A stretch of 64,000 bases of DNA from Terriglobia bacterium (GTDB lineage Bacteria; Acidobacteriota; Terriglobia; 20CM-2-55-15). The position numbers and the translations under genes are program-made. Below, piece after piece: positions 1 to 23,617 of the stretch (position 1 is its first letter; every line of letters begins with the position of its first letter). Below the pieces are notes generated by a model. That model searched no databases, was not told the DNA's origin, and worked only from the letters and a program-made list of their open reading frames with translations. The stretch lies in assembly GCA_963664115.2 (NCBI GenBank), contig CAXWPJ010000005.1:192001-256000 (forward strand), read 5' to 3'.

Positions 1-135
1 CCCAGGCCAATTCTCCGGGAAGCGTTTTGATCGCCGTGTCGTCCCCACGTTTCCTAACCCGCGCACGCCACAGGGCGCTCTTGCCGCCCTGAGTGAAAGG
101 ATGGTGTCGTGACCGAGTTTGGGGCCCGACGCCAT
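1..135 (-). pseudogene. Degenerate Ser/Thr kinase N-terminal stub, running off the window start
   Basis: The reverse complement reads MASGPKLGHDTILSL, then after a frameshift GGKSALWRARVRKRGDDTAIKTLPGELAW. It matches the 8327 stub and is preceded by the same leader (GCGACACACT..ATG). Confidence 0.7.
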
Positions 136-380
136 CGATCCAGTGTGTCGCTGACTGAAGCCTGAAAATCTGGCTCAATATACCTGCAGGTGGAAGTTAT
201 TCGCAAGAAAAGTCTCGAGTCCTGGCGAACGAATTGTTTTAAGTCGTAAAACGGCCCGAAGACAGCAATCGAGATATCGAGACATCGCGCAAGTGGGTAC
301 GGCAGGGCGCCATTGTTTGGGCGTGTCCTGGAATTCCCCCCACTGTTACCCAGAGCCTGACCCGGAACTCGATGGCAAAT

Positions 381-405
381 AAAAAGGCCGCAGGAATGCG
401 GCCTT
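381..405 (-). terminator. Rho-independent terminator downstream of 490..1347
   Basis: Hairpin AAGGCCGCA-ggaa-TGCGGCCTT followed by a U-tract on the minus strand. Confidence 0.7.
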
Positions 406-423
406 AAGTATCTGTTCTAAAAA

Positions 424-465
424 TCGGGTGGGGCGATTCGAACTCCCCGTCTCGGGCTCCCAAAT
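424..465 (-). other. Possible degenerate 3' half of tRNA-Pro(TGG)
   Basis: Minus strand TTTGGGA...GGGGAGTTCGAATCGCCCCACCCGA has an anticodon-loop-like segment and a T-loop. No D-arm or 5' acceptor strand is visible. Confidence 0.35.
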
Positions 466-489
466 GGGAGTGAGTAATCTCCAGAGATT

Positions 490-1347
490 TTAATTGCCGC
501 TGGTTCCGACATCAATGCCCTGGGCTTCGGGGCCGATCGCGGGTCTCAAAACCTGCTCGATATAGTCGAACGAGTCGGATGGTACGCAGAAGTACTCCCC
601 GATTTCGGTTCCGGGGCTCCGCAGGAGGTTTCCAGCGGTCACCCACGGCTGGGTGAAGGTCTTCGGATCGGTGATCGTCAGTGTCACTTCGATCGTGTTG
701 TAGTCCACACGTCTGTAGCGCTCCTCTGTACGCAACGCATCACTGTGCGTGTATCCGAATCGACGATCCTGTCTATTCTCGGTAAGCCAGGAACGCTCGT
801 CAAAACCGCTGGACTGGACGACGAACGTGTCCCCCTCCCACTGGCCGACCGAGTATCCCATCCACCGTGGATCCGGATCTTCGGGGAGTTCGCGACCATC
901 GGTCCAGATCGTCCGAAAGGTGTGGCCCCACTCAAGGAACTGGACCAGCCTGTCAGGCATCTCGGCGAACTCGAAACCGTAGTTGTACGTGAACATGCGA
1001 GGCCAGCCCATAGGATCACAGATCAGCATGCCGTCTTTCGAATTCGAAAGCGCCTGTCCGCCGGCGGTTTCGTCGGCCCTCGTGGCGTCGTACCTCGCCT
1101 GTCCGTCCGGTGTCATGGGAGGCGCATTGCGGTTGAGTTGAATTCGGTTTTGGCCCCATATCCCCGTCAGGTCACCGGGATTGAATGGCAGGTCCGCCGT
1201 CTCTGAGCGTAACTCCGTTCTATTGTCGTTCGTCTGGCAATTTGGGCAGGTCAACCACCCGGGATACAGATCCTGGGCGGTGGTGACTGCCGGTAAAACG
1301 ATGACGCCTACCAGTACAGCGATCAAACCTATGATGCAGTGTCGCAT
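490..1347 (-). CDS. Conserved exported hypothetical protein, usual partner of DUF6152 genes
   Basis: Signal peptide and motifs DLTGIW, C.P.G.PR, R.IWTDGR.LP, GYSVG.WEGDT, DPKTFT.PW. Confidence 0.75.
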   Translation of the reverse strand: MRHCIIGLIAVLVGVIVLPAVTTAQDLYPGWLTCPNCQTNDNRTELRSETADLPFNPGDLTGIWGQNRIQLNRNAPPMTPDGQARYDATRADETAGGQALSNSKDGMLICDPMGWPRMFTYNYGFEFAEMPDRLVQFLEWGHTFRTIWTDGRELPEDPDPRWMGYSVGQWEGDTFVVQSSGFDERSWLTENRQDRRFGYTHSDALRTEERYRRVDYNTIEVTLTITDPKTFTQPWVTAGNLLRSPGTEIGEYFCVPSDSFDYIEQVLRPAIGPEAQGIDVGTSGN

Positions 1348-1353
1348 TTCCTT

Positions 1354-1405
1354 TACTCCGTGATGCTACTCCGTGATGCTACTCCGTGATGTTACTTCGT
1401 GATGC
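1354..1405. repeat. Four copies of a 13-bp tandem repeat TACTCCGTGATGC
   Basis: Copies start at 1354, 1367, 1380 and 1393; the last two each carry one mismatch. Confidence 0.95.
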
Positions 1406-3189: not shown

Positions 3190-3199
3190 ACACCATGAG

Positions 3200-3314
3200 C
3201 TGGGAAACGGATGGTGGTCGATTCATATTGACCGGACTGACTGGACTCACAGGCCGCTCGGCGCCAGCCGGGAGATAGCGCCGCGTTCGCCTGATCGAAC
3301 TCGTCGGGGAACAA
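3200..3314 (-). pseudogene. PD40/TolB-repeat fragment of the kinase family
   Basis: EFDQANAALSPGWRRAACESSQSGQYESTTIRFP resembles the recalled kinase-TolB segment FNE.NA.LSPDGRWLAY.S.ESG.YEVYVRPFP. Confidence 0.6.
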
Positions 3315-3317
3315 GCA

Positions 3318-4763
3318 TTAGAGATAGTTGATAAAAGCCACCTTGTGTTCGGTAAAAAATTCGATACCGGTTTTGCCCGACTCGGGGATCCCGTGACCCG
3401 ACGACTTCACCCCGCCAAAGGACAACTGCGGCTCGCGATAGGCCGTCATCATGTTCACGTGCGTCAAGCCCACCTCGCTCTGGTCCAGAAACTGAAACGC
3501 GCGCGATATATCTCTGGTGAAAATCGATGACGTCAGCCCAAACTCCACCTGGTTGGCTATCTCCAGTGCTTCATCAAAATTCCGCGCCGCCATCACGCTC
3601 AACACCGGCCCGAAGATCTCCTCCTGTGCGATCCGCATCTCCGATTTGACTCCGGCGAAAACCGTCGGCGCGACAAAACACCCCCGGTCCAGGCCACTGT
3701 CGGTCAGCCGCTGTCCCCCCTCGACCAGCTCGGCCCCCTCGCCCTGCCCGATGTCGATATAGCCCATAATCGTCTCCAGTTGGTCCGAACCGCACACCGG
3801 CCCCATATCGACATCCCCGCGACCGTCACCCACCCGGATCGCCCGCACCCGCTCCAGCACCTTTTTGGTAAAGACCTCCGCCACCTCCTCGATCACGATC
3901 GCCCGGCTCGTCGACGTGCACCACTGCCCGGCGCAGGCATAGGCCGCTGTGACCACTGCATCCGCCGCCTTGTCGAGGTCGGCGTCTTCTAATATCACCG
4001 CCGGATTTTTGCCGCCCATCTCCAGCTGGGTGCGGATCAGCGTCTGGGCCACGCTCTGCTGTATCCCCTTGCCGACTCCCGTCGATCCCGTAAAGGACAC
4101 CGACTGCACCAGCGGATGGGTGATCATCTCGTCCCCGACCGTACTGCCCCCGCCGCAGACGAAATTCAGCACCCCTGGCGGCAGGCCGGCTTCGACAAAT
4201 ACATCGACAAAGGCTTTGCCCGCGCCTGGTGTCAGGCTGGCGGGCTTAAAGACGATGGTATTGCCGCTGATCAGCGCGGGTGTGCACTTGCGGCCCGGCA
4301 CGTTAAACGGAAAATTCCACGGGCTGATAATCGACGCCACCCCCAAGGGCCGCCGCAGGCTATAGGCGAAGACCCCCTTCTGCGCCGAGGGCACGGTCTC
4401 GCCGCACATCGTCACTCCCTGAGCGATCTGATACTCCATCTCGCGCACCGCCGACCGCACCTCGGTCAGCGCCTCGGCCAGGGACTTGCCATTTTCCGCC
4501 GTCAGCGTCGCCGCGATTGCCTCCGTCCTGCCCTTCAGCACCGCCACCGCCCGCGACAGATACTCCGCCCTCTGGAAAACACCGATCCCGGCCCATTCGG
4601 GGAAAGCCGCGTGCGCAGACTCGATCGCCTTCCTGGCGTCATCGCGGGTGCCCTTGGGCCAGATTCCGGTCACCTGTCCGAGGTCGGCCGGATTGCGCTG
4701 CTCGAAGGTCTGCCCATCCGCTGCGGGGACCCAGGCGCCGTCGATGTAGTTCTGCTGTTCCAT
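3318..4763 (-). CDS. NAD(P)-dependent aldehyde dehydrogenase (alpha-KGSA dehydrogenase-like)
   Basis: Motifs PWNFP, FTGS, LEMGGKNP, GQWCT, EEIFGP and FGG.K.SG. Confidence 0.93.
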   Translation of the reverse strand: MEQQNYIDGAWVPAADGQTFEQRNPADLGQVTGIWPKGTRDDARKAIESAHAAFPEWAGIGVFQRAEYLSRAVAVLKGRTEAIAATLTAENGKSLAEALTEVRSAVREMEYQIAQGVTMCGETVPSAQKGVFAYSLRRPLGVASIISPWNFPFNVPGRKCTPALISGNTIVFKPASLTPGAGKAFVDVFVEAGLPPGVLNFVCGGGSTVGDEMITHPLVQSVSFTGSTGVGKGIQQSVAQTLIRTQLEMGGKNPAVILEDADLDKAADAVVTAAYACAGQWCTSTSRAIVIEEVAEVFTKKVLERVRAIRVGDGRGDVDMGPVCGSDQLETIMGYIDIGQGEGAELVEGGQRLTDSGLDRGCFVAPTVFAGVKSEMRIAQEEIFGPVLSVMAARNFDEALEIANQVEFGLTSSIFTRDISRAFQFLDQSEVGLTHVNMMTAYREPQLSFGGVKSSGHGIPESGKTGIEFFTEHKVAFINYL

Positions 4764-4809: not shown

Positions 4810-4962
4810 CGCGGTCGCGCTCGATAGAGCGGCGGGTCACGTCGACGTCCCGACGCAGCTGCTGGGTCCCTCCTTTGCCCCTCCTTTGCCGCGGAGGACG
4901 AGCCCTACTTTGCCAGGGAGGACGAGGACTTCGTAGTGGCCGACTCTGGAGCCGGTTTCCAT
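4810..4962 (-). pseudogene. Degenerate Ser/Thr kinase N-terminal stub
   Basis: METGSRVGHYEVLVL...GKGG followed by QLRRDVDV after a frameshift; the upstream leader is homologous to 8260-8326. Confidence 0.75.
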
Positions 4963-5258
4963 CGTTATAGCGGGTTCCTAACTGAACCGTGAAATTCTGG
5001 CAAGATATAACGACAGGTGGGATTTCGGGTCACTGAAACTCTAATTCGATTGCGTCCTTAGGGTGTGTGTGGCCAAACTTCAACTTCCGACACGATGGGT
5101 GATCTCAGTTTCCATCGGAAGCCGACTTCTGGGTCCCTGGATGCTTTTGACCATTTTGAACGCCAGGCGACGACTCGTTACCGGTCTGGTGCTGACATCC
5201 GTTGGTTGCGGCTTACCTGATGTCTTTCAGCGATCAGTGGCTGCGATAGCGGACACAC

Positions 5259-7053: not shown

Positions 7054-8210
7054 CTGAATCGAAACACCTCAGAAACTGCCATATTCCGAAACACCACCGA
7101 GAGAAGAGGACAGGCTTCTGACTGCCCCGATCTATTTGGAGCCGTCCAATTCTTTAGGGGTTTGGCTCAATATATGAGACGGCATTGATTATCTCTGGCA
7201 AGGTCTCCCCCGTGGGGCAAGCGCCGCCATCCTCGTGGGGTTTCAAGCGGCCCACAGCCTTAGACGGAAGTTCATTTGTAGACGCTAATCAGTACACATT
7301 CCTGCAATGTTCTGCCCTTTGTGTCAGTCAGCATATCGTGATGGCTTTACAGCGTGCAGCGACTGCGAAGTGGGCCTCCTCGATTCGTTCAAGGACCTAG
7401 AGTTCTCCTCAGTAAGACCTTGGAAGGGAGAGCGACAAACTGTGTTCAACTTGATGCTCAGGGGATTCCGTCACACCTGAAAGAAATTCCAAATCTTGAA
7501 CCGAGAGAAGGGCGTTGGTGGATAGGGTGGCTTCCGATCTCTCCTAAGCTCGAATACGAAGTGTGGGTGCTCCGTTCCGATCTATGGGTGGTCGATTCCT
7601 CCTGTCGAAAGCGCCACGTCACCCTCAGGTGTGAATTCTCGCTCACAATCGGGCGAATGCCCCGCGCTACAACGACACAGCGCAAAACTTTTACGCATCA
7701 CAAGAATCGAAACCGGCAGCATACAAGACGAGACTCTCCTGGTTCTGCTGGCAAGTTTGCAGCGACTTTTGAAACCCGAGGACAGAACCTTAAAAGTCAA
7801 AAATTGAACTGCGGTAGGCGGCTTTGGCATTTCGAAAGCAATTTCTCATCTATCAAAACTTCATCGCCATTCCTGAAACGTATTTGCGAATCCGACTCAC
7901 TCAAATCAGACGTTTCGAAACTTAAATCAGCATGCCTCAAGGTTGCTCCCAGATCTTGAAAGGTGGCAACACCATTCTGAAACCGTAAAGCGTTCCCGAA
8001 ATACAACAAACCATCCGCTCACAAGCGGAAGATAAGATTTTTCACCCAGCTTCGAAGCATGAGTATCTCAATGAGACAACGGGAGGTCTAAGATGATCAT
8101 CTGGGCCCTGAAGAGCACCTTGATCGTGGTCGAATCCCTTTAAAATATACATTGCAAAAGGATTCTAGAAGCCACCAGGTGGTTAGAACGTGACTTGCGA
8201 GGCCGACTAA

Positions 8211-8249
8211 TTCTCACTGTCCGACAAGGTCGTTTCTCAGGACCTGACC
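8211..8249. repeat. Upstream inverted repeat of a kinase-shell unit
   Basis: Its reverse complement matches 10421-10459 at 30/39 positions without gaps. Confidence 0.85.
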
Positions 8250-8255
8250 TTCTGA

Positions 8256-8284
8256 TTGCTTACAACTCCCACCTCTAGTATCGT
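8256..8284 (+). promoter_or_regulatory. Sigma70-like promoter conserved across units
   Basis: TTGCTT-17-TATCGT; homologous positions at 19306-19334 (TAGCGC-17-TATCTT) and 22559-22587 (TTGCGT-17-TATCTT). Confidence 0.6.
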
Positions 8285-8326
8285 TTGCCGAGTTTTTCAC
8301 GGTTCGTTTCGACGCACACTAAAACG

Positions 8327-8482
8327 ATGGAATCAACCACACAACTCGGCCACTACGAGATCTCAACGCTCTTGGGTAAGGGTGGAATGGGAGAAGTTTG
8401 GCGTACGAGAGATACGAAGCTGGGACGTGAAGTTGCCATCAAGACGGTGTCTGAAGAGTTTGCGAGAGACGCCGACCGATGA
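8327..8482 (+). pseudogene. Ser/Thr kinase N-terminal stub (subdomains I-II, 51 aa)
   Basis: [51 protein letters not shown]; the stop overlaps the next ATG (ATGA). Confidence 0.9.
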
Positions 8483-10179
8483 AGCTTTTCAACAGCCAAT
8501 TCTCGCATGTCTTCAGCAAAGGCGAGATGCGCCGGAACCTCTTGACCTTACTCCGCTACCTCGCCTTTCTCTTCGCTATCGTTCTTACCTACGCCCTGAT
8601 CTTTCAGCTGATTATGATTGGCGTGGAGGACCAGTCACACTCCTGGATGACGGGCATCTACTGGACGCTCGTCACCATGACGACCCTCGGATTTGGTGAC
8701 ATTACATTCGCCACTGATATTGGCCGCCTTTTCAGCGTCTTCGTCTTACTGTCAGGCGTCGTCCTGCTCCTCGTTGTACTCCCCTTCACCTTCATCCGCT
8801 TCTTCTATGCGCCATGGCTCGAAGCCCAGGTGAGACTCAGAGCACCGAGGCGGCTTCGACCTTCGGTAAGAGAGCACGTGATCATCAGTCGTCACGACGA
8901 AATCGCCGCCGGTTTGATTGAGCGGCTGCGCCCCGAGGCGATTCCGTACTGCGTGATCGAGCCGGATCCAACCGTTGCGGCGCAGATGCTCAGCCAGGGT
9001 ATCTCCGTCGTCACGGGCGACATCGACAACCGGCTAACCTACGAAGGGGTCAATGTTCAGCAGGCCCGGCTGGTGCTTGCTAACCGAGAGGACACGACCA
9101 ACACGAACCTCACCCTAACTGTACGTGAGGTCACCACGGATGTCCCGGTCGTCGCGTTCGTCGAGAATCAGGACTCAATCGACATTTTGGAGCTCAGTGG
9201 TGCCACGCATGTGCTTGCTCTGAAACAGCGTCTGGGTGAATACCTCGCCAATCGCATCAGTGGCGGACAGGGCCACGCGGACGTAATCGGGGAGTTCAAG
9301 GGACTGCAGATCGCCGAGTTCCCAGCGCACAATACCCAGCTCGCCGGACGGAACGTGCGCGAGACGCGAATGCGAGAGACGATGGGCTTGAACATCGTCG
9401 GCGTCTGGCAGCGCGGCCGGCTACGACCGGCGTTTCCCGATACCCAGATCGTCGATCAGAGTGTCGTCGTCGTGGTCGGCGTGCCGGAGCAGATCGGCGA
9501 GTTGAATGGCCTCCTCCACCGCCCCGATGTGCGCGATGAGCCAGTTTTGGTCATTGGCGGTGGCAAGGTGGGACGCGCTGCGACGCGTGCCCTCAAGCGG
9601 AAAGGTGTTCCCGTGCACGTGCTCGAACGCGACGATCGGGCACACGACAAACTCGCGGGCATCTGCGATCAGCATTTCGTGGGTGACGCTGCTGATCGGG
9701 AGGCCCTGATGAGGGCGGGCCTGCAGAACGCTCCCTCAGTGCTGCTGACCACGAATGATGACGCCATGAACGTGTACCTAGCCGTGTACTGCAGGCGACT
9801 CAAGCCAGATCTACGGATCGTCAGCCGGATTACGCACGAGAGAAACCTCGAAGCGATCCATCGGGCGGGCGCAGATTTCGTGTTGAGCTACTCGACGCTG
9901 GGAGTGGAAGCTGTCTTTTCGGTGCTGCAAGGCCATGAGCTCGTCATCTTGGGGGAAGGTGTCGACCTATTTACGGTGGACCTCCCCCCTTCTCTGCAGG
10001 GCAAGATGCTTGCGGAAACTGGCATCGGCTCGCGAACTGGGCTGAGCGTGGTCGCGGTTGGCCAGAATGCGCAGCTGGTGACGAAGCTTCACTCTTCGAT
10101 GCGACTGGAGCCGGGCGCAAAGTTGATCATGCTGGGGAGCGTCAAGCAGCGGCAGGCGTTTGCCGACGCGTTTGGGTAG
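8479..10179 (+). CDS. Potassium channel protein with tandem RCK (TrkA-N/C) domains
   Basis: Two TM helices, filter [15 protein letters not shown], and two TrkA-N/TrkA-C pairs. Confidence 0.9.
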
Positions 10180-10380: not shown

Positions 10381-10413
10381 ACCGAACTGAAGGAACGCGT
10401 GCCGGTTCCCTGA
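10381..10413 (+). pseudogene. Kinase C-terminal stub
   Basis: Reads TELKERVPVP*. Confidence 0.8.
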
Positions 10414-10420: not shown

Positions 10421-10459
10421 GGTCAAGTCCTGATAAATCATCTTCGCGGACGTTGAGAA
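10421..10459. repeat. Downstream inverted repeat of a kinase-shell unit
   Basis: GGTCAAGTCCTGATAAATCATCTTCGCGGACGTTGAGAA, with homologs at 12532, 19201 and 22467. Confidence 0.85.
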
Positions 10460-10693
10460 ATTCTGCGAACCGTTCCACATTGTTTAGCGGCACTGATATT
10501 TCGATAGCTTCCGTGTACATTAATTAATATTCTCTATGAAGCTTTTATCCGCCACGCCTGATGAGCAAACGGAGGCGTGGACGAACTTCTGTCGAGTAAG
10601 CCACGACGAGAGATCCGAGGACGCGGAGGCCTGCCTGAAGCATCGAAGCAATGGCATGCCCATACCCGCAAACACCCTATGGGGGATTTCCAG

Positions 10694-12972: not shown

Positions 12973-13015
12973 ACGAACCGGTCCCGATATCCTACTTTCT
13001 TTCGAGGTCATACGA

Positions 13016-14080
13016 CTGTCTCTAGACGATTTCGGCTTCTCACCGTTTTTCGCAAGAGCGCTCGGAGGCTTAGCCCCTGAGCTCGAGCCGGCACGCGTTA
13101 TCGTGTCGCGCGGGGCATTTCAGCGGGTCGTTACCGAACACGGCGAATCGGATACCTCGGTCTCGGGGACGCTGCGCCACAAAGCGTCCCCTGCCGGGCT
13201 CCCAACGATTGGCGACTGGGTCGCTGTTCGGGAGGGCCGGATCGAGAACGTCCTTCCCCGTCTCACCAAGCTGTCACGCAAAGTCTCCGGTAAACGGACG
13301 CGGGAACAGGTTGTAGCGGCGAACGTCGATACGGTTATCGTCGTGATGGGACTGGACCGGGACTTCAGCAAATCGAGACTCGAACGCTATCTGTCCACTG
13401 TGCGGGCCAGCGGGGCGAAGCCGGCGGTCGTCCTCAACAAAGTGGACGTCGAACCCGGTTTCGAAGCGCGGCGAAACGAGATCGAAACCCTCATGATGGG
13501 CGGCCCTGTCGTCGCAGCGAGTTGTCTGGAAGGTTTCGGACTCGATGAAGTTCGCGCACTGCTCCGCCCCCGACACACGGCCGTTCTGGTGGGCTCGTCT
13601 GGCGTCGGCAAATCGACGCTGATCAACTTAATGCTGGGTGAAGCCCGGCAGACGACGCGCAGCGTCGGCTCACACAACGACCGGGGACAGCACACCACGA
13701 CCCATCGGGAGCTATTCCAGATTCCAGGGGGAGCATTGCTCATTGACAGCCCGGGTATACGAGAACTCCAGCTCTGGGCAAACGATGACGGGCTCAGCCA
13801 GGACTTCGACGATATTACGCGGCTGGCGATTGCTTGCCGGTATCGTGACTGCGCCCATGACGATGAACCCGGCTGTGCCGTCACCGGAGCCATTGCGGCT
13901 GGCCGGCTCGACGCCGGACGACTCGACAGTCTCCGCACGATGCGAAAAGAACTCGAAACGCTTCGCAAGCGCAAGGATGATGCGAGGGATCGGATTGAAG
14001 AACGGAAGTGGCGAAGCACTCAACGAGAGATACGCCGATCGGGCGGCATTGAGGAACCGGATGGAGAGGAACCCGATTGA
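13016..14080 (+). CDS. rsgA: Ribosome small subunit-dependent GTPase A; start uncertain (CTG 13016 or GTG 13103)
   Basis: GDWV, AANVD, NKVD, GSSGVGKST, HTTT, DSPG and zinc finger C.Y.DC.H..EPGC. Confidence 0.92.
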   Translation: MSLDDFGFSPFFARALGGLAPELEPARVIVSRGAFQRVVTEHGESDTSVSGTLRHKASPAGLPTIGDWVAVREGRIENVLPRLTKLSRKVSGKRTREQVVAANVDTVIVVMGLDRDFSKSRLERYLSTVRASGAKPAVVLNKVDVEPGFEARRNEIETLMMGGPVVAASCLEGFGLDEVRALLRPRHTAVLVGSSGVGKSTLINLMLGEARQTTRSVGSHNDRGQHTTTHRELFQIPGGALLIDSPGIRELQLWANDDGLSQDFDDITRLAIACRYRDCAHDDEPGCAVTGAIAAGRLDAGRLDSLRTMRKELETLRKRKDDARDRIEERKWRSTQREIRRSGGIEEPDGEEPD

Positions 14081-14083
14081 CCC

Positions 14084-14148
14084 CGGCCCGGGATCAACGT
14101 GGTGCCGAACTGGATCGAACAATGGACAGAACGGTGTCGGCGGCCTGA
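14084..14148 (+). pseudogene. Degenerate kinase C-terminal stub
   Basis: RPGINVVPNWIEQWTER immediately after the rsgA stop. Confidence 0.7.
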
Positions 14149-14589
14149 AGCCAACCTGTCAAACCTGGGATGATCAATCCAACTATCTGTAACGATTTTC
14201 GAATGCCTTGTCCGCAACGCACGCGGGGGAGGACGTCATCTGCGATCCAAGAATCGACTGACATGTGGCTGCCGGACGCCCAATTTCCCTGAAACTCCCA
14301 AATAGTCCGGTGCTGGGCATCTGGGTCGATTTTAAATGCTTGGTAAGTCGCCTATACGGAAAAGTGCATTCAGAATGAGGCAGCGGATTACTCCTCCCTT
14401 GTCGCCTAGCGTTTAGGAATGGGCATTAACGACCCAAAAGTCGGCTTCGGGGAAGTCGGCGGAGACAGAGATGACGGCTCAAGTCCTGTATCTGGACTCC
14501 TCTGTCAAGTAGGCGCAGCTCTCCCGTCAGCTTTCTTCGGCAAAATGCATTCAGCAGGACTGACTAGAAGTTACGAGATGAGTAGCTAG

Positions 14590-16420
14590 TCCCTGAACAA
14601 GCGTGATTGACGAGGAAATGATAGTGCAATAAGAGCGGAAGTACCCGAAATGCCCCTCTCCGTGCGAAAAAAACCTTGGACAGATTCTTCGGAAAAGGAG
14701 GCATTTCAGATGAACGATTATACGCGCAAGAACATGAGGAACCGCAAGCGGCGAATCGAACGTCGGCTTGGGGACCGGCATTGGACGGATCAGGTAGAGC
14801 CGATGTTTTCGGCGAGCAACATTCAGTACGAGATGGGAGAGCGGACGCGGGGCACATCGGTTGGTGGTATCGGGACGATGCAACTGGTGGCGCGGCGGAC
14901 CGGGCTGATCGAAGCCATCGACAAGGGCGTGCATGTGTTGAAGCGGCACCTGCCGTATCACGAGTCGGATCACGTGCTGAACATCGCCTACAACGCCTTG
15001 AGCGGAGGAACGTGCCTGGAAGACATCGAACTGCGGCGCAACGATGCGGTGTATCTGGATGCGCTGGGAGCGCAACGGATTCCGGATCCGACGACGGCGG
15101 GAGACTTCTGCCGGAGATTCGAGGCCGACGACGTGGAGTGTCTGATGGAGGCAACCAATCAAGTCCGGCTCGGAGTCTGGCGACAGCAACCGGCGGCGTT
15201 TTTCGAAGAAGCGGTGTTGGACGCGGACGGGACACTGGCCGAAACCACGGGGGAATGCAAGCAAGGGATGGACGTGGCCTACGACGGGACGTGGGGATAT
15301 CACCCGCTGATGATCTCGCTGGCCAACACCGCCGAACCGCTGTATCTGGTCAATCGTAGCGGCAACCGGCCGTCGCATGAAGGAGCCGCGGTCCGGTTCG
15401 ACCAAGCCATCGCATTGTGCCGGCATGCGGGGTTTCGCCAGATCCTGCTGCGCGGGGACACGGACTTCAGCCAGACCCGGCATCTGGACGGATGGGACGA
15501 CCAGCAGGTGGGTTTCATATTCGGGATTGACGCGATGGCGAACCTGAAGGCCCGGGCCGATGAACTGGAGCCGCGCCAGTGGAAGCGCCTGGAACGGCCC
15601 GCGAAATACGACGTGGCGACCGAACCGCGCCAACGTCCCGACAACGTGAAGGAAGAGATCGTTCGGCAGCGCGGTTTCGACAATATCCGCTTGCAGGGTG
15701 AGGATGTGGCCGAGTTTCGGTATCGACCCGGAGCCTGCGATCGGGACTACCGTGTCGTCGTGGTGCGGAAGAATCTGTCGGTGGCCAAAGGAGAGCAGGT
15801 GTTGTTTGACGAATCCGGTACTTGGCTACATTACCAACCGTTCGGATCCGGCCGATCAGATTGTGATGCGTGCCAATCAACGGTGCAATCAGGAGAACTC
15901 ATTGAGCAGTTGAAGAACGGCGTTCAGGCGTTGCGGATGCCGGTCGGAGATCAGACCAGCAACTGGGCCTACATGGTGATCGCGTCACTGGCCTGGACAC
16001 TGAAAGCGTGGTTTGCATTGCTGCTTCCCGAAACCGGACGTTGGGGCCAAAAATATCAGGCTGAGAAGCAAACCGTGCTGCGCATGGAGTTCAAAACCTT
16101 CTTGAACGCTTTCATGCTTGTGCCGTGCCAACTCGTGCGCACCGGGCGGCGCATTCTGTTCCGGATCCTGGCCTGGAACCGGTGGTTGCCGGTCTTGTTC
16201 CGCGGGGTGGATGTGTTGCGTCGCCTCTGCGATGTTGACCCGATCATGACTTGAGCCCGGGCGATCGAGGTCCCGGTTTCTGTCAACCGTCCAACACCAG
16301 CGAGGCTGAACTGAAACAGATTCAACAGAAACTCGATACCTGGAACAGGCCATCCGGGAACGGGATTCTATGCCTCGAATTCTTCGGCGAACTGGGCCTC
16401 GGCGGACTGGTTATGCGCTT
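14590..16420 (+). mobile_element. IS1380-family copy 1, frameshifted and lacking the right end
   Basis: Near-identical to 16436-18284 but with several small indels and without the last ~9 bp. Confidence 0.9.
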
Positions 16421-16435
16421 GAGATGAGTAGCTAG

Positions 16436-18284
16436 TCCCTGAACAAGCGTGATTGACGAGGAAATGATAGTGCAATAAGAGCGGAAGTACCCGAAATGCC
16501 CCCTCTCCGTGCGAAAAAAACCTTGAACAGATTCTTCGGAAAAGGAGGCATTTCAGATGAACGATTATACGCGCAAGAACATGAGGAACCGCAAGCGGCG
16601 AATCGAACGTCGGCTTGGGGACCGGCATTGGACGGATCAGGTAGAGCCGATGTTTTCGGCGAGCAACATTCAGTACGAGATGGGAGAGCGGACGCGGGGC
16701 ACATCGGTTGGTGGTATCGGGACGATGCAACTGGTGGCGCGGCGGACCGGGCTGATCGAAGCCATCGACAAGGGCGTGCATGTGTTGAAGCGGCACCTGC
16801 CGTATCACGAGTCGGATCACGTGCTGAACATCGCCTACAACGCCTTGAGCGGAGGAACGTGCCTGGAAGACATCGAACTGCGGCGCAACGATGCGGTGTA
16901 TCTGGATGCGCTGGGAGCGCAACGGATTCCGGATCCGACGACGGCGGGAGACTTCTGCCGGAGATTCGAGGCCGACGACGTGGAGTGTCTGATGGAGGCA
17001 ACCAATCAAGTCCGGCTCGGAGTCTGGCGACAGCAACCGGCGGCGTTTTTCGAAGAAGCGGTGTTGGACGCGGACGGGACACTGGCCGAAACCACGGGGG
17101 AATGCAAGCAAGGGATGGACGTGGCCTACGACGGGACGTGGGGATATCACCCGCTGATGATCTCGCTGGCCAACACCGCCGAACCGCTGTATCTGGTCAA
17201 TCGTAGCGGCAACCGGCCGTCGCATGAAGGAGCCGCGGTCCGGTTCGACCAAGCCATCGCATTGTGCCGGCATGCGGGGTTTCGCCAGATCCTGCTGCGC
17301 GGGGACACGGACTTCAGCCAGACCCGGCATCTGGACGGATGGGACGACCAGCAGGTGGGTTTCATATTCGGGATTGACGCGATGGCGAACCTGAAGGCCC
17401 GGGCCGATGAACTGGAGCCGCGCCAGTGGAAGCGCCTGGAACGGCCCGCGAAATACGACGTGGCGACCGAACCGCGCCAACGTCCCGACAACGTGAAGGA
17501 AGAGATCGTTCGGCAGCGCGGTTTCGACAATATCCGCTTGCAGGGTGAGGATGTGGCCGAGTTTCGGTATCGACCCGGAGCCTGCGATCGGGACTACCGT
17601 GTCGTCGTGGTGCGGAAGAATCTGTCGGTGGCCAAAGGAGAGCAGGTGTTGTTTGACGACATCCGGTACTTCTTCTACATTACCAACCGTTCGGATCCGG
17701 CCGACCAGATTGTGATGCGTGCCAATCAACGGTGCAATCAGGAGAATCTCATTGAGCAGTTGAAGAACGGCGTTCAGGCGTTGCGGATGCCGGTCGGAGA
17801 TCAGACCAGCAACTGGGCCTACATGGTGATCGCGTCACTGGCCTGGACACTGAAAGCGTGGTTTGCATTGCTGCTTCCCGAAACCGGACGTTGGGGCCAA
17901 AAATATCAGGCTGAGAAGCAAACCGTGCTGCGCATGGAGTTCAAAACCTTCTTGAACGCTTTCATGCTTGTGCCGTGCCAACTCGTGCGCACCGGGCGGC
18001 GCATTCTGTTCCGGATCCTGGCCTGGAACCGGTGGTTGCCGGTCTTGTTCCGCGGGGTGGATGTGTTGCGTCAGCCTCTGCGATGTTGACCCGATCATGA
18101 CTCTGAGCCCGGGCGATCGAGGTCCCGGTTTCTGTCAACCGTCCAACACCAGCGAGGCTGAACTGAAACAGATTCAACAGAAACTCGATACCTGGAACAG
18201 GCCATCCGGGAACGGGATTCTATGCCTCGAATTCTATCGGCGCGAACTGGGCCTCGGCGGACTGGTTATGCGCTTGTTTTGGGA
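16436..18284 (+). mobile_element. IS1380-family element copy 2
   Basis: Ends CCCTGAACAAGCG and CGCTTGTTTTGGG, flanked by CTAG on both sides. Confidence 0.92.
16557..18089 (+). CDS. IS1380-family DDE transposase
   Basis: LDADGT, GYHPL, RSGN, LRGDTDF and R...EN.I..LK. Confidence 0.92.
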   Translation: MNDYTRKNMRNRKRRIERRLGDRHWTDQVEPMFSASNIQYEMGERTRGTSVGGIGTMQLVARRTGLIEAIDKGVHVLKRHLPYHESDHVLNIAYNALSGGTCLEDIELRRNDAVYLDALGAQRIPDPTTAGDFCRRFEADDVECLMEATNQVRLGVWRQQPAAFFEEAVLDADGTLAETTGECKQGMDVAYDGTWGYHPLMISLANTAEPLYLVNRSGNRPSHEGAAVRFDQAIALCRHAGFRQILLRGDTDFSQTRHLDGWDDQQVGFIFGIDAMANLKARADELEPRQWKRLERPAKYDVATEPRQRPDNVKEEIVRQRGFDNIRLQGEDVAEFRYRPGACDRDYRVVVVRKNLSVAKGEQVLFDDIRYFFYITNRSDPADQIVMRANQRCNQENLIEQLKNGVQALRMPVGDQTSNWAYMVIASLAWTLKAWFALLLPETGRWGQKYQAEKQTVLRMEFKTFLNAFMLVPCQLVRTGRRILFRILAWNRWLPVLFRGVDVLRQPLRC

Positions 18285-18591
18285 CTAGTATAGCTGTGCT
18301 TCAGGTCTCTCACAATTGGGCGCCAGACGAAAGAAGATCACGTCTGACCAATCAGTGACAGGGAGAAACGAGCTGTCCCAGCCGAACCGGTCGCGCCGGA
18401 AGGCGAAGGGAAGGGGATGCTAAACAATGCATTATCGGGTACGAAATGTCCTGCCGCAGTCCGGTTGGAGGCTAGTTTCCAGGTAAGGAACCGGGAAGCC
18501 GTCACGGACCGGCCTCAGGTCTCGGCAGATCCGGGTAAAAGCTATCGCGTGTAATCGAATGGTGAGCGATTCATTGCGATACGTGAAGAAC

Positions 18592-18705
18592 TAGCCGAGA
18601 CGCCGGAAGGCGGCATCGAACCGCCCAGTCGCGAGGCAATAACAAATGTAGCCGAGACGCCGGAAGGCGGCATCGAACCGCCCAGTCGCGAGGCAATAAC
18701 AAATG
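18592..18705. repeat. Perfect 57-bp tandem duplication
   Basis: TAGCCGAGACGCC...AATAACAAATG occurs at 18592 and 18649. Confidence 0.95.
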
Positions 18706-18817
18706 TCCCATATGGACCCCGGATAGTGAACGCATGACTTTTGCTTCAAACAGAGACGGGACGTGGGGTATTTATTGGCAACGCGCAGATGGAAGCGGTG
18801 TTGGCTAACTCCTTACG
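18692..18817 (+). pseudogene. PD40/TolB-repeat fragment of the kinase family
   Basis: GNNKCPIWTPDSERMTFASNRDGTWGIYWQRADGSGVG*LLT. Confidence 0.8.
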
Positions 18818-18935
18818 ATGCTGGACGAGATGAAAACACGACGATCTCCGGGCATGAGGCGCCGACTTCCGTCAGAAATTGTGACCCAATCAGGTTAAGT
18901 TGACCCTACCTTCCGGTAGTTCCGCGAGCAAGGAA

Positions 18936-19175: not shown

Positions 19176-19299
19176 CGGGTCCCGGTGCCCTGATTTGCGA
19201 TCTCAAGTCTTGAAAAATTCCCTTCTCGGACATTGAGAATCGGGCAAATTTCTGGGGATTTTCAACGTCATCAAGAAGGTCGTTTGCCAGGACCTGAGA
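19176..19299 (+). repeat. C-stub (RVPVP*) plus a complete ~99-bp imperfect palindrome at a unit junction
   Basis: TCTCAAGTCTTGAAAAA...CCTTCT..GACATTGAGAATC pairs with GATTTTCAACGTC..AGAAGG...TTTGCCAGGACCTGAGA (19201-19299). Confidence 0.85.
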
Positions 19300-19376
19300 A
19301 TTTGATAGCGCCTAAATTACTCCTCTAGTATCTTTTACCGAGAATTTAACTGTTCATTTAGCGACACACTTCGAAC

Positions 19377-19409
19377 ATGGAATCTGGCACCAAACTCGAC
19401 CATTACGAA
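19377..19409 (+). pseudogene. Short kinase N-terminal stub, in frame with the amidohydrolase
   Basis: MESGTKLDHYE after the conserved leader. Confidence 0.8.
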
Positions 19410-19439
19410 CAATCGCTCGATTTTTTAAGGAGAGGTACT

Positions 19440-21104
19440 GTGAAACATTTGAACTGGAAAACGACAGTGGCTCTTGTTCTGTTCGCAAGTTCCGTTGCTG
19501 CATCAATGGCTCATGCACAGGATCAGGCTCCGGATCTGGTTCTGTCCAACGGAAAGGTCGTTACTGTAGATGACCGCTTCACGATCGCAGAAGCGGTGGC
19601 TATCGGGGGCGAACGTATCGTGGGAGTCGGCACGAATCAGGAAGTCGCGCGACTGGCCGGGCCCAATACCCGAACGATCGATCTCGGAGGGCGTACCGTT
19701 ATTCCCGGCCTGATCGATAACCATGCTCACATCATGGAAGAAGGTCCGATCTGGCAGTTGGAACTGCGTCTGGATGGGGTGGAATCGCGGACCGAAGCGC
19801 TCGAGATGATACGCGGGCGGGCAATCGATCTGGGTCCGGGCGAATGGGTTTTCACACTGGGCGGTTGGGCGACGGATCAATTCACAGACGACGTGAGTCA
19901 TTTCACACGCGACGAGTTGGACCGGGTTGCTCCCGACAACCCGGTACTGTTGCAGTACACACGCTCCCACACTTATCTCAACAGCCGCGCTATAGAGGCC
20001 ATCGGGTTGAATGAGATGAACGCTCCATGGATCGTGCGCGATGATGGCGGAAGACCGACAGGCGTGATCGAAGCTGAGGGCATCAACCAAGTCGGACGAG
20101 CGCGTCCCGCGCCGCCAGAAGAATTGTTCGAATCCAGCAGCCTGGCAATGATCCGCGATATGAACCGAGCGGGTCTTACCACGGCCGGCGGTCCCTGCCC
20201 CGCGAACCTCATAGACAGGTTCCGGCAATTTGCAGATGAGGGTCGGCTCAATATGCGGTTCTTCTGTTTTCTGCCGACGGGAGCGTCCGGCACCCCAGCC
20301 CAGGTGGATCGCCTTCTGCCGCAGATCGCCGAGTTGAAACCGTTCCAGGGCGACAACTGGGTGGATCTGACCGCCTACGGAGAAAGCGTATACCGCCCGC
20401 TGCACGACAGCATGCTGGCACGCACAACCAATCCAACACCCGAGCAGCTTTTCCAGTGGCGACGCGTCGCGACTGAAGTTGCCCGTGCTGGATTACCGCT
20501 GCACGTACACGCCACGATCGAGAACACGATTACCGGATTTCTCGACCAGATCGAGCTGATTAACCAAGAGTACCCCATACGGAATCTGCGCTGGGCTTTG
20601 GCTCATGTTGACCAGGTGAACGCCTCACACATCGAGCGCATGAAGGATCTCGGGATGTACCTCGCGGTACATACGCGGCCGACCGTCATGGGCCAGATCT
20701 TCAACCGTGCGCATGGCGACCGTTCCTACGATATGCCGCCGCTGGCGCTCATCGAGAACAGCGGGATCGTGTGGGGCCTGGGAAGCGACACGTTCGAGGT
20801 GAATCAGTACCGGCCGTTCACGACCCTCTGGTGGGCTGTGACCGGGAAGATGGTAGGCGGCACCGAGGTCCTCAGGCAGACAATCGGCCGCGAAGAAGCC
20901 TTGATCGCCCACACGCGCGAAAATGCCTACCTGGTGTTTCAGGAAAACAATCTGGGTTCAATCCAACCCGGCAAGCTGGCGGATCTGCTAGTTCTGGACC
21001 GCGATTACCTGACGATTCCAGCCGACGAGATCAAGGACATCCAACCCCTGATGACGATTGTAGGAGGACGCATCGTCTACGACGCCGACGCTGATCAGGA
21101 CTGA
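19440..21104 (+). CDS. Exported amidohydrolase (Amidohydro_3/YtcJ-like)
   Basis: Own RBS and GTG start; signal peptide; IDLGGRTVIPGLIDNHAH; GSD; GSIQPGKLADL. Confidence 0.88.
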   Translation: MKHLNWKTTVALVLFASSVAASMAHAQDQAPDLVLSNGKVVTVDDRFTIAEAVAIGGERIVGVGTNQEVARLAGPNTRTIDLGGRTVIPGLIDNHAHIMEEGPIWQLELRLDGVESRTEALEMIRGRAIDLGPGEWVFTLGGWATDQFTDDVSHFTRDELDRVAPDNPVLLQYTRSHTYLNSRAIEAIGLNEMNAPWIVRDDGGRPTGVIEAEGINQVGRARPAPPEELFESSSLAMIRDMNRAGLTTAGGPCPANLIDRFRQFADEGRLNMRFFCFLPTGASGTPAQVDRLLPQIAELKPFQGDNWVDLTAYGESVYRPLHDSMLARTTNPTPEQLFQWRRVATEVARAGLPLHVHATIENTITGFLDQIELINQEYPIRNLRWALAHVDQVNASHIERMKDLGMYLAVHTRPTVMGQIFNRAHGDRSYDMPPLALIENSGIVWGLGSDTFEVNQYRPFTTLWWAVTGKMVGGTEVLRQTIGREEALIAHTRENAYLVFQENNLGSIQPGKLADLLVLDRDYLTIPADEIKDIQPLMTIVGGRIVYDADADQD

Positions 21105-21140
21105 TCGACCCAGGACCCGCCAATTGCAGAAAGGAAGCTC

Positions 21141-21197
21141 GTCACATCGCTCCTGAACTGGTTTGAAGAACTGAAGGAAGGTGTGCCCTTTCCGTGA
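21141..21197 (+). pseudogene. Kinase C-terminal stub
   Basis: Reads VTSLLNWFEELKEGVPFP*. Confidence 0.88.
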
Positions 21198-21321
21198 TTT
21201 CGAGTTCAAGGTGACAACGAATCATATTGTCGGTGGTTGAACATTGGATCGTTGATGGCAGAGTCAGCGGTTGATCCAGCCCTGGATCATTGTAATCAAG
21301 CAGACGACACGAGAGGTGGAG

Positions 21322-22341
21322 ATGAACATCAAGATTTGTCGCACCGCGGTTGCGCTCAACCTGCTCTGGCTGGCCACCATGGGATGTCAGGTGGAGGATC
21401 AAGCAGATGGAGCGGCTGGTTCGGATGCAGCGCGCACCACGGCCGTTCTGGCCGCAGGGCCTAACGCCGCCCTGTCACAGTTCGCTTTGCCCGACATCGA
21501 GATCCGTTCTGATCTTGAGTTGGGAACGTTGCCCGAGGGCTGGAGAACCGGCGGACCAGACTGCACCGACATGCCCCGCTGGCAGGTACACGCGTACAAC
21601 CCTGACTTCTATATCCTCCGACAGTCCGGCTGCATCCACTATGAGAAGCCCTTCCTGTACCTGATATTTGGTGAGGAGCGGGCCTTGCTTGAGGACACCG
21701 GTGCCGGTGATGCGGATACCGCGGCCCTCGTCCTGCCGCTCGTGGAGCAATGGTCTGAACGAAACGGCAAGGACAGCCCGATTCCCCTGACCGTCGTTCA
21801 CTCGCACTCTCACGGCGATCATGTGGCCGGTGATCGGGGGTTCGACAACCTTCCTGGTGTCGCAGTCGTGGCCGCTGCTGTCGGCGATATCCAAGTTGCC
21901 TTTGGAATTGAGAACTGGCCGTCGGATACGGGTCAGATTGATCTTGGCGACCGCGTGCTGGACGTGATTCCCATTCCGGGACACGACGGGGCGAGTATCG
22001 CGCTGTATGACCGGGCGACGGGGGTGCTCCTGACCGGAGACAGCCTCTACCCGGGCCGGCTCTACGTGGGCTACAACAACTTCCGCGCCTTCGTCGAGAG
22101 CAACCAGCGGCTCGTAGATTTCACCCGGGACCGACCCGTTGCCCACATCCTGGGCACGCACATCGAGCAGACTCGGACTCCTTTCGTTGACTATCCGCGG
22201 GGCACTCGATACCAGCCTGACGAACACACGCTCGAGATGTCGCGGGGATTGCTTCTCGAGTTGAACGGCGCACTCATTGACCTCAACGGAACGCCGGAAG
22301 AGGTCGCGTTGCGCGACCTCACGTTGTTCCCGATTCGGTAA
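21322..22341 (+). CDS. MBL-fold metallo-hydrolase, probable lipoprotein
   Basis: HSHGDH, PGH, TGD and lipobox-like MGC. Confidence 0.85.
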   Translation: MNIKICRTAVALNLLWLATMGCQVEDQADGAAGSDAARTTAVLAAGPNAALSQFALPDIEIRSDLELGTLPEGWRTGGPDCTDMPRWQVHAYNPDFYILRQSGCIHYEKPFLYLIFGEERALLEDTGAGDADTAALVLPLVEQWSERNGKDSPIPLTVVHSHSHGDHVAGDRGFDNLPGVAVVAAAVGDIQVAFGIENWPSDTGQIDLGDRVLDVIPIPGHDGASIALYDRATGVLLTGDSLYPGRLYVGYNNFRAFVESNQRLVDFTRDRPVAHILGTHIEQTRTPFVDYPRGTRYQPDEHTLEMSRGLLLELNGALIDLNGTPEEVALRDLTLFPIR

Positions 22342-22466
22342 GAGGCCTTGACCATCGTTGGGCCGATAGGCGTACACCTCTATTCCGGCGCCATGCAGTC
22401 CTAGGGTTCAGCCACGAGCCTCTAGCTGAGCGAATCAAGAAGACCGGATCCAGAACGAAAGCCATG

Positions 22467-22551
22467 CTCAAACCCTGACAAATCTTGTTGAGAATGGCTT
22501 GAAATACGGGGGTTTCCGAGTGTCCGGTTAGATCTTTTGCCAGGACTTGAG
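22467..22551. repeat. Junction palindrome of the kinase-shell family
   Basis: CTCAAACCCTGACAAA ... TTTGCCAGGACTTGAG, followed by the conserved promoter and leader. Confidence 0.8.
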
Positions 22552-22636
22552 AGTTTGGTTGCGTCTGACCCTCTCGTTTAATATCTTTTACGAAGATTTT
22601 TCACTGTTCGATACGCTACACATAGAGGTGACTCCG

Positions 22637-23617
22637 ATGAAAAGAGCTATGACATATGTGACGTTGGGGGCGGTGTGCGCTCTTCTGTCCTGCAGCGCCG
22701 CCCTTCCCCAGGAAGTGATTCCGACTGGAGGTCCGATTCCCGACATACGCGGATTCAACAGCCGGGTCAACGATCCCGAGGCGGTGGCGGCGATCGAGGT
22801 AATCGTCCGCCATGTTGCCGGCCAGGTGTACGTGATTGCCGGAGCAGGTGGAAACATGACGGTCATGGCGGGCGACGATGGGATATTCATCGTCGACACG
22901 AATTTCCCCGTCTTATACGACGAGATCATGACCTTGATCCGGCGAATCTCGGATGGACCCATCCGCTTCGTGGTCAATACGCACTCTCACGTGGACCACG
23001 CCGGCAACAACGAAAACTTTGCCCGGGAGGGCGCGGTGATCGTCACCCAGCCCAACCTGCGCAGGGCACTGATCGGAGACAGCAGCGGATCGGATCTTCC
23101 GGGCGGACTGCCTGTGATCACATCGACGGAACCGATGTCGTTTCACTTCAACGGAGAGGAAATCCTCTTCGTGCCCTTATTGCCCTCGCACACGGACGGC
23201 GATGCGGCCGTTTACTTCAGCGGATCCGACGTGTGGTCCTTTGGTGACGTGTATCGGACAGACTATCCGTCCCTGAATCCCGCCGTTGGCGGGACGATCG
23301 AGAATTTCAAAGATATTTACAGCATGGCGCTCGATATGACCACCCCAGAAACTATTTTCGTTCCCGGCCACGGCCAGCTCTCGCCCAGAGAGGAACTGAG
23401 CGGAGTACTGGAGGCCATAAATACGATTCACGAGCGTTTCCGCGACATGATAGCCCGGGGCATGACGCTCGAGGAGATCACCGAGGCGCGTCCGTCAAGA
23501 GAGTTCGATGCGCGTTTCTCCAGCGAATCCAAGTCGCCCACCACGGGCAATACGGTAGAGCGCGTTTACAGCCGTTTGTACGATGACGTTTCAAGGGAGC
23601 TGGCAGAACAACAGTAG
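22637..23617 (+). CDS. MBL-fold metallo-hydrolase (cyclase-like)
   Basis: NTHSHVDH.GNN, HTDGD and VPGHG. Confidence 0.87.
   Translation: MKRAMTYVTLGAVCALLSCSAALPQEVIPTGGPIPDIRGFNSRVNDPEAVAAIEVIVRHVAGQVYVIAGAGGNMTVMAGDDGIFIVDTNFPVLYDEIMTLIRRISDGPIRFVVNTHSHVDHAGNNENFAREGAVIVTQPNLRRALIGDSSGSDLPGGLPVITSTEPMSFHFNGEEILFVPLLPSHTDGDAAVYFSGSDVWSFGDVYRTDYPSLNPAVGGTIENFKDIYSMALDMTTPETIFVPGHGQLSPREELSGVLEAINTIHERFRDMIARGMTLEEITEARPSREFDARFSSESKSPTTGNTVERVYSRLYDDVSRELAEQQ

Follow-up and report, generated by a model that had tools for sequence, protein, structure and literature searches.

Organization of the locus

The stretch of DNA analysed here, called the window, is 64,000 nucleotides (nt) of a Terriglobia bacterium (GenBank assembly GCA_963664115.2, contig CAXWPJ010000005.1, positions 192,001 to 256,000). 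In our labelling it is G000:C5:192001-256000, where G000 is the source genome, G001-G017 are relatives and L-numbers are fetched loci. In its annotated part (1-36 kb), genes of unrelated function lie among the broken ends of kinase genes with PD40 repeats, and the typical unit, which we call a shell, consists of a promoter with an N-terminal kinase stub (N-stub), a cargo gene and a C-terminal stub (C-stub). A preliminary description, made from the letters of the window, had taken such shells for a gene-capture and shuffling platform bounded by inverted repeats. The platform reading holds, as the stubs are ordered and oriented and the units recur at other array positions and in other species. 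Across the genome and its relatives there are sites with two classes of centre, one-way arrays with reassorted flanks, common units, polar stubs and, beside a family of tyrosine recombinases, similar sites. The arrays are real and genus-wide, a cassette system of the tyrosine-recombinase kind whose capture device is unusual, and are likely an undescribed integron-like gene-shuffling system. The window array is not an assembly artefact, since contigs of several runs bridge parts of it, with none spanning the whole.

All five N-stub starts of the preliminary description are present (135 and 4962 on the minus strand, 8327, ~12816 and 19377; profile E 2e-12 to 4e-59), and Pfam confirms its four cargo genes, an aldehyde dehydrogenase (ALDH), a TrkA/Ion_trans_2 channel, RsgA and Amidohydro_3, each co-oriented with its own N-stub. 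Five of the seven C-stubs are recovered by profile (10384, 11833, 12477, 14073 and 21063), while those at 19176 and 34372 (minus strand) are seen by translation only; similarly, one of the PD40 pieces is strong (18656-18829, E 9e-13) and the other weak (3192-3302, E 0.23). No intact kinase or recombinase was found in the annotated 36 kb, as had been stated, but the genome holds four intact kinase-PD40 genes, plus a few broken full-length copies, and a recombinase gene flanked by sites.

A 41-bp site with two classes of centre

The boundary elements are real and occur genome-wide, but rather than inverted repeats they are oriented palindromic sites that mostly stand in direct repeat. The site of type 1 is 41 bp long and has 243 copies at E<0.05, or 231 after removal of six near-identical contig overlaps (9-28 kb, at the ends of C11, C12, C2, C5 and C9), which were taken out before most counts; the reversed genome, our control for both site and stub profiles, gave none. 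Altogether 208 of the 231 sites group into 27 clusters with a total span of 523 kb. The core has an 11-6-11 layout, in which two 11-base arms enclose a 6-base centre that is faced by AA and TT, and its positions are ~95% conserved. Sites of the R class (centre ATCATC, 128 copies) lie downstream of kinase stops or C-terminal ends, and those of the L class (centre ACGACA or ACGACC, 19 copies) lie inverted, upstream of the kinase promoter; the R:L ratio in the source genome is ~6:1.

The arrays run one way, with 131 of 136 consecutive R sites in the same orientation. The earlier reading had overlooked the 11-6-11 site with its two centre classes and at least two sequence types, the many units wholly without a kinase stub, and the main cassette form, which runs from R to R: neighbouring site pairs are direct in 113 cases, enclose a shell in 33 and are tail-to-tail in 29. 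The spacers of the 29 tail-to-tail R-L pairs measure 13-17 nt in 15, 27 nt in one and 106 nt in five, the short form being present in both orientations. The 106-nt spacer is conserved in its five junctions (e.g., G000 C12:509760-509867) and is possibly a shrunken recombinase element. No target-site duplications were found at the 24 L-R pairs inspected. One IS30 and two IS110 families of insertion sequence (IS) insert only into the type-1 site (6/6, 6/6 and 5/5 copies in the source genome, 17 copies genome-wide), two families in the 6-bp centre and one in the left arm, which makes them ready cases for bridge-RNA target prediction.

Single-strand folding of the kind expected for attC was inconsistent over five folds, with z of -2.8 and -3.1 for the two strands of one site and poor values for the other three, and window 1-36000 has no Rfam match. 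In the genome collection, only Terriglobia records contain exact copies of the site. Viral sequences gave 0 matches to it, and three loci with the ideal symmetric core, at which no recombinase was recognised within 2.5 kb. Viral contigs L112-L114 carry a lone perfect palindrome of two C-type arms (at ~2500 or ~1550) that resembles an attachment site. Replication-strand bias of site orientation is weak, on contigs that are rearranged. A conserved sequence family of ~70 nt stands downstream of 18 R sites in the source genome (e.g., C10:212437) and presumably resembles the ends of integrative elements, and the upstream flank of some R sites overlaps a 7-1-7 dyad that we take to be Fur-box-like (window 12520-12540).

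A second sequence type (type 2) has TCCG in one arm and CAGG in the other in common with type 1, and the inner AA/TT is absent. In G004, G007 and G013, kinases are flanked by type-2 sites arranged as L and R like those of type 1, and in the window such sites bound the rsgA shell. Strict type-1 counts are 113 in G000, 61 in G002, 38 in G003, 5 in G001 and 1 in G004, with a single match in one more of the 31 genomes searched; strict type-2 counts for the same five genomes are 4, 5, 0, 31 and 24, with a few in three other genera, and a type-2 match occurs in 12 of 35 genomes. The two types are complementary in number among sister species, type 2 being dominant in two of them (G001 and G004). A third motif, the type-3 palindrome, has 21 of its 26 matches, some of them counted on both strands, within 3 kb of a type-1 site.

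Kinase stubs and probable capture of cargo

Profiles built from the genome's own kinases detected 109 promoter/N-stub and 153 C-stub matches genome-wide and none in the reversed-genome control; after removal of overlaps, 97 N-stubs and 145 C-stubs remain. In 56 of the 57 cases in which a C-stub follows an N-stub within 6 kb, both stand on one strand; the other 40 of the 97 N-stubs have no C-stub at that distance. Stub position and orientation are non-random: a site is found within 3 kb for 80/97 N-stubs and 124/145 C-stubs but for 15% of random positions. A conserved promoter (TTG-N16/17-TA..T) precedes the N-stubs, with sigma-70-like spacing in 64 of 84 full upstream regions. Co-orientation of cargo as a rule held in part: of 45 shells, 36 have a first open reading frame (ORF) that points the same way as the shell, but between R sites orientation equals the background. 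Few N-stubs open a frame of at least 120 amino acids (aa) (5/58), and two of these are clear long fusions, including that at window 19377. The kinase-PD40 family is expanded across the class; loci L101 (G017) and L105 (G013) are head-to-tail operons of intact kinase-PD40 genes, with palindromes like repetitive extragenic palindromic elements between them in G013.

The stubs are polar. Their outer ends are fixed, 55 of 68 kinase-domain fragments beginning at ATG, and their inner ends spread continuously: coverage by these fragments is 55 at nt 30 but 13 at nt 300, with detection also falling past nt 450. Among four paralogues, codons 1-50 have a silent-site identity of 0.51 and the last 16 codons one of 0.76, compared with 0.26 for the core, which is equally conserved; a less sharp silent homogenisation of kinase ends is seen in G007, G013 and G017. 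Among the N-ends of the fetched loci, 12 of 27 were truncated at loci with sites and 0 of 16 at site-free loci, the latter loci having been chosen for intact kinases.

One cargo gene occurs in three states: free of stubs (G000 C8), joined to a C-stub and a site but no N-stub (L082), and enclosed by two stubs (L084 and L072, which diverge right after the site). G007, of another genus, carries a full L-to-R shell of this kind (L109). The K+ channel stands behind a 150-codon N-stub in G001 and a 51-codon one here, with the joint at a match of ~10 nt between kinase and cargo leader. Because the N-stub of rsgA ends with the bases of this channel junction plus the first five of the channel gene, its sequence suggests that the rsgA shell is a reused one. 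The capture of genes by kinase ends looks stepwise and homology-anchored.

Recurrence and sharing of units

Flanks are reassorted at the sites. Among 183 R sites of the source genome and its relatives, 15 pairs are alike only in the upstream 100 nt, 16 only in the downstream 100 nt and none in both, and units that run from site to site are duplicated at different array positions (e.g., C2:264297-265623 and C6:43763-45089, 99%). Sharing between species was assessed on 20 fetched loci, picked for sites or window cargo, by comparing their non-IS segments with the source genome. Fifty such segments match at 88-98%, against 77-87% for the xerC/xerD regions. These segments have 99 ends, 17 of them in a site where 1.5 would be expected, 15 in a C-stub (expectation 1.7), 7 in a promoter or N-stub (expectation 2.5) and 5 at IS ends, so that site, stub and promoter ends together make up 39 against ~6 expected. 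A run X13 contig also contains window 12685-14356, there set between different flanks left and right.

The preliminary description had named three observations that would point to simple decay, namely stubs random in position and orientation, cargo that does not vary among relatives, and cargo syntenic in relatives that lack stubs. None of them was cleanly seen, and the synteny comparison is weak because the compared genomes are rearranged. Gene order around the window is disrupted in G001, G002 and G004, each of which has different genes upstream of the CoA-transferase gene; in G004 the ALDH gene with its N-stub lies 5 kb from the CoA-transferase upstream stretch, in the same order. At G000 C6:27115 and C11:55521, long common flanks enclose different cassettes, with one breakpoint at an R site; the two could be haplotypes of a single array, or the result of a duplication.

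Candidate recombinase and other enzymes

The site system is probably run by a tyrosine recombinase. The candidate is an orphan protein of 320 aa encoded at C5:52192-53154, ~139 kb outside the window, between two inverted L sites that each lead out to a kinase promoter and divergent from the kinase promoter. It matches PF00589 with 97 bits and has the R-K-H-R-H-Y motifs, whose catalytic roles we assume, at residues 169, 196, 266-269, 292 and 301 of the open frame. It falls below the cut-offs of the XerC/XerD models (TIGR02224 or TIGR02225, 127/335 and 123/330 bits) and of the integron integrase model TIGR02249 (60.7 bits, cut-off 265), and has only distant solved relatives. Of the 401 genomes of the class, 73 contain homologues, so that the site system could be widespread; homologues are also found on 7 plasmids. 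The one in G007 lies in a kinase cluster, divergent from a kinase, where the site matrix gave no score. The homologue flanks were scored with a matrix trained on type-2 array sites, which had been defined before these flanks were seen. Scores above the 95th percentile of shuffles were reached by 11 of 34 flanks downstream, which all have one orientation, and by 8 of 32 upstream, which all have the opposite one, with the same arm facing the gene. With a matrix of all types, whose type-3 motif was defined afterwards, the flanks of other recombinases score lower (p 7e-4).

Among the array ORFs scanned (142 of 208) no enzyme was found apart from IS proteins. IS91-like units, which encode a Y2 transposase and a tyrosine recombinase, were considered as the driver and rejected; two sit inside an L site and G003 has none. 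All eight in the source genome lie within ~260 nt of a site with GTT at both ends (e.g., C1:92926, C12:569265, C3:2939), the copies examined in G001 have no type-1 or type-2 match, and we read these units as parasites of the site. Serine resolvases were likewise set aside, with three matches in the source genome and none inside a site cluster by position. An IntI-like integrase gene (G000 C9:714593-715873) lies far from all arrays, with no site within 3 kb, and one cassette contains, at C6:39814, what we take to be the left half of an attC, cut off. Extra dif-like sites, besides the main dif, were seen at G017:C1:1119429 and at G002:C1:478199, C2:3627227 and C2:3801330.

Proposed mechanism and alternative explanations

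We consider it probable that in the 27 chromosomal arrays, one of which the window holds, the 11-6-11 sites between accessory genes are recombined in trans by the orphan recombinase, with the ends of the kinase family serving as capture anchors and promoter. The kinase gene itself would have been a cassette, made of an L site, the promoter, the gene and an R site. Foreign DNA would then replace the kinase middle, one end per event, by homologous pairing in a stub and an illegitimate or microhomology joint, leaving stubs that are fixed outside and variable inside and a cargo gene behind the kinase promoter. Sites with like centres (R-R, L-L) would recombine to excise, insert and reorder units, which horizontal transfer would spread. 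Genomes without the enzyme would keep their arrays, served by passing copies of a small site-recombinase-site element. Whether this amounts to a third kind of cassette platform beside integrons and dif modules, with a kinase cassette co-opted as a cassette factory, is a more tentative matter, and we find such a status nearly as plausible as its opposite.

Several results weigh against recombination at the sites by this enzyme. With the query used, the candidate was not found in G002, G003 and G004 and is broken in G001, though G002 and G003 have 61 and 38 strict type-1 sites. Downstream flanks of the homologues lack a high-scoring site in 21 of 34 cases, and a matrix of type 1 only scores 4 of 34. 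No recombination product, circle or empty site was seen in reads; read joints such as 10470 back to 8210 have short sides, are matched by junctions elsewhere in the genome and are explained by paralogous stubs, and are therefore no evidence of circles. No D-arm/D-arm junction was found in the source genome or the fetched loci. Two attempts to place the crossover by linkage were mixed, in that pairs alike upstream are consistent with a crossover in the centre (1.07 mismatches in the left arm, 2.0 in the right) and pairs alike downstream are not (1.25 and 1.5). Of the ends of common segments, 55/99 fall outside sites, stubs, promoters and IS ends, and alignments often continue through repeats, so that the enrichment is somewhat inflated. 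ORFs between direct R sites divide 102 to 61, showing no orientation bias against a 64% background on crude ORF calls. Silent-site homogenisation is also present at loci of G017 and G013 without sites.

Host XerC and XerD offer another enzyme, under which the sites would be variant xrs/dif sites as in Acinetobacter dif modules and the orphan recombinase a mere module. We favoured this at first, given the 11-6-11 layout with its inner AA/TT, one arm near the XerC arm of the acidobacterial dif (PMC3025954 supplement) and inverted L/R pairs that resemble C|D and D|C module ends; XerC and XerD are also the only orthologues common to G000, G002 and G003 among the PF00589 matches compared. It was lowered because the host dif is canonical and single (C2:108118), the sites match its arms at only 7.1/11 and 5.1/11, and dif is nearly the same in G001-G004 while the site type switches. 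Type-2 sites, moreover, do without the inner AA/TT, and orientation is mostly direct rather than alternating, and we now hold this explanation to be unlikely. Much the same degree of doubt attaches to a scheme in which no site-specific enzyme acts now and stubs, promoters and sites are homology arms for RecA-type or illegitimate recombination, the site being a relic or operator. It would accommodate the continuous breakpoints in stubs, the many common segments that end in C-stubs or arbitrary DNA, the homogenised kinase ends at site-free loci and the site-rich genomes in which the enzyme was not found. It sits poorly, however, with a site that is better conserved than its flanks and has a fixed centre in each class, with stub-less units that run from site to site, with an R-L spacer of 13-17 nt in both orientations, and with similar sites flanking the recombinase family in other families of the class.

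Two further explanations seem to us very improbable. Shells could be non-autonomous transposons, such as mobile insertion cassettes or units flanked by MITEs (miniature inverted-repeat transposable elements), with L and R sites as terminal inverted repeats. Thirty-three segments do have an inward-facing pair around promoter and cargo, and whole L-to-R shells occur in other genomes, yet the 24 L-R pairs lack target duplications, R sites outnumber L sites about sixfold, transposases at sites sit inside the site and split it, and among the 142 array proteins there is no transposase bounded by these ends. Plain decay, in which the kinase tandems of an IS-rich genome erode and receive unrelated genes by random insertion, could draw on the 246 multi-copy intervals of the source genome, on many frameshifted stubs, on the N-stubs without a nearby C-stub (40/97) and on the intact kinase tandems of relatives. 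It fails because the stub gradient is anchored at the 5' end, and it is further contradicted by the nearly invariable same-strand pairing of stubs, by identical junctions that recur in different genomes, and by truncated N-stubs at site-bearing but not at site-free loci, given how the latter were chosen. Plain decay is refuted, though decay still acts on top of the system.

Relation to known systems

In operation the system resembles an integron and in construction a dif module, but it fails tests that define both. As in integrons, sedentary chromosomal ones included, there are one-way arrays of accessory genes with a repeated site, and units common to different positions and species. A tyrosine recombinase gene likewise has, next to it, a special site with a divergent promoter, and there are arrays without an enzyme (compare clusters of attC sites lacking integron-integrases, CALINs). 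IS110-family elements target the site, just as IS1111 elements target attC in integrons. However, the site here is a fixed 41-bp element with an 11-6-11 dyad and an invariant centre, whereas attC is a hairpin of variable length with complementary R boxes; the candidate fails the IntI model and the IntI-like gene on C9 is not next to an array; and there are 27 arrays, sites of two classes, and cargo that shows no preferred orientation between R sites.

Acinetobacter pdif modules form multi-module islands, including chromosomal ones (PMC12907356), and IS targeting of the xrs site is known (bioRxiv 10.1101/2022.12.17.520857). The arrays share with them 11-6-11 sites around one or a few genes, inverted pairs, multi-module islands and site-targeting IS. 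They differ in a poor match to the host dif, above all in the XerD arm, in ~230 sites per genome, in 113 direct against 62 inverted neighbours without C|D, D|C alternation, in lineage-specific site types under an unchanged dif, and in their link to the ends of a single gene family. Homology-facilitated illegitimate recombination joins DNA at a homologous anchor, and orphan rhs/cdi tips are variable loci with conserved ends; our arrays resemble these in a fixed homologous anchor with a variable joint and in conserved gene ends homogenised at silent sites, but in our arrays that anchor is fused to a site of recombination type, and the host gene has its entire middle replaced by unrelated genes. 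Like the shells, mobile insertion cassettes and MITE-bounded units hold cargo between inverted ends and encode no enzyme, but here there is no target duplication and the ends are common array sites, mostly in direct repeat.

The origin of new integron cassettes is a long-open question. Here possible intermediates stand side by side, from intact kinase cassettes through half- and fully captured cargo to reused shells, and they point to a testable route of cassette-making by homology-anchored replacement inside a host gene. If this is true, kinase ends capture genes stepwise, add a promoter and weld them to sites, which is the step of unknown origin in integron cassettes, and a new recombinase whose two 6-bp centres cannot stand in for each other would lend itself to use as a genetic tool. 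The site clusters (~523 kb) take up about one tenth of the genome, and searches based on attC or dif should miss them. A literature search, short of most subscription journals, gave no description of this site family or of kinase-bounded cassettes, and the main text of PMC8138268 does not contain the term 'acidobacter'.

Features of the window

Table 1. Shell components, sites, cargo genes and inserted elements in the annotated part of the window (positions are those of the window)
Feature	Position	Strand	Evidence or remark
Kinase promoter and N-stub (ATG 135), runs off left window edge	4..213	-	profile E 7.5e-25
Weak PD40-like kinase fragment	3192..3302	-	tblastn E 0.23
Cargo aldehyde dehydrogenase	3318..4763	-	PF00171; 88-91% copies in four other contexts, G001-G004
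Kinase promoter and N-stub (ATG 4962)	4885..5039	-	profile
Degenerate type-1 L site, then type-3 palindrome	5080..5107	-	E 0.022, window-only search; sequence
Type-1 L site, centre ACGACC	8210..8248	-	E 5.5e-10
Kinase promoter and 51-codon N-stub (ATG 8327)	8252..8479	+	86% aa identity to intact kinase
Cargo K+ channel with TrkA domains	8479..10179	+	Pfam; 93% copy in different kinase shell, G001
C-stub ELKERVPVP-stop	10384..10412	+	profile
Type-1 R site, centre ATCATC	10421..10460	+	E 2.5e-13
Cargo DUF411 piece	10871..11161	+	Pfam; site and piece common to G002, 92%
Cargo SnoaL-like gene	11317..11772	+	with C-stub common to G001 (94%) and G004 (96%)
C-stub NWFEELKERVPVP-stop	11833..11907	+	profile
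Cargo ORF, 155 aa	11957..12424	+	no Pfam match
C-stub with internal stop	12477..12513	+	profile
Type-1 R site	12532..12571	+	E 7.4e-14
Type-3 palindrome, centre GCCGCC	12627..12644	+	sequence
Type-2 L site, left bound of rsgA shell	12738..12771	+	E 1.4e-7
Kinase promoter and frameshifted N-stub; end bases as K+ channel junction	12779..12973	+	profile, sequence
Cargo rsgA GTPase	13103..14080	+	Pfam; shell with other flanks in run X13 contig
Diverged C-stub	14073..14146	+	profile
Type-2 R site, right bound of rsgA shell	14333..14366	-	E 2.8e-6
Type-3 palindrome, centre GCCGAC	14433..14451	-	sequence
Type-1 left arm, split by left end of site-targeting IS110 element	14475..14574	+	
PF13701 (DDE_Tnp_1_4) IS tandem pair	14575..18288	+	later insertion, outside system
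Internal PD40 fragment of kinase	18656..18829	+	tblastn E 9e-13
Minimal C-stub VPVP-stop (last 4 codons)	19179..19193	+	translation only
R site, 17-nt spacer, L site: recurrent tail-to-tail junction	19201..19299	.	
Kinase promoter and 11-codon N-stub, in frame with amidohydrolase	19298..19409	+	
Cargo amidohydrolase	19377..21104	+	94% copy ending at site, G003 array
C-stub and degenerate R site	21132..21241	+	profile
Cargo metallo-beta-lactamase (MBL)-fold hydrolase	21271..22341	+	Pfam
Degenerate R-L junction and kinase-type promoter before second MBL-fold gene (ORF to 23617)	22466..22623	+	E 0.025-0.1, window-only search
Doubtful isolated C-stub CFEELKERM	34372..34402	-	translation only; no profile match

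An inverted third copy of the PF13701 IS lies at window 50299-52155; the genome has ~71 copies, and the first of the tandem pair carries small indels. Two copies of a DDE_5 IS with 21-bp inverted ends are found at window 23640-25115 and 34489-35964, and tandem repeats of 13 bp and 57 bp at 1354-1405 and 18592-18705, respectively. Window 400-480 presumably holds a tRNA-like remnant typical of the ends of integrative elements, for which Rfam gave nothing. At window 490-1829 a DUF6152 gene stands beside a partner of ~285 aa, and a second DUF6152 gene lies at 5259-5696, the family being frequent among array cargo.

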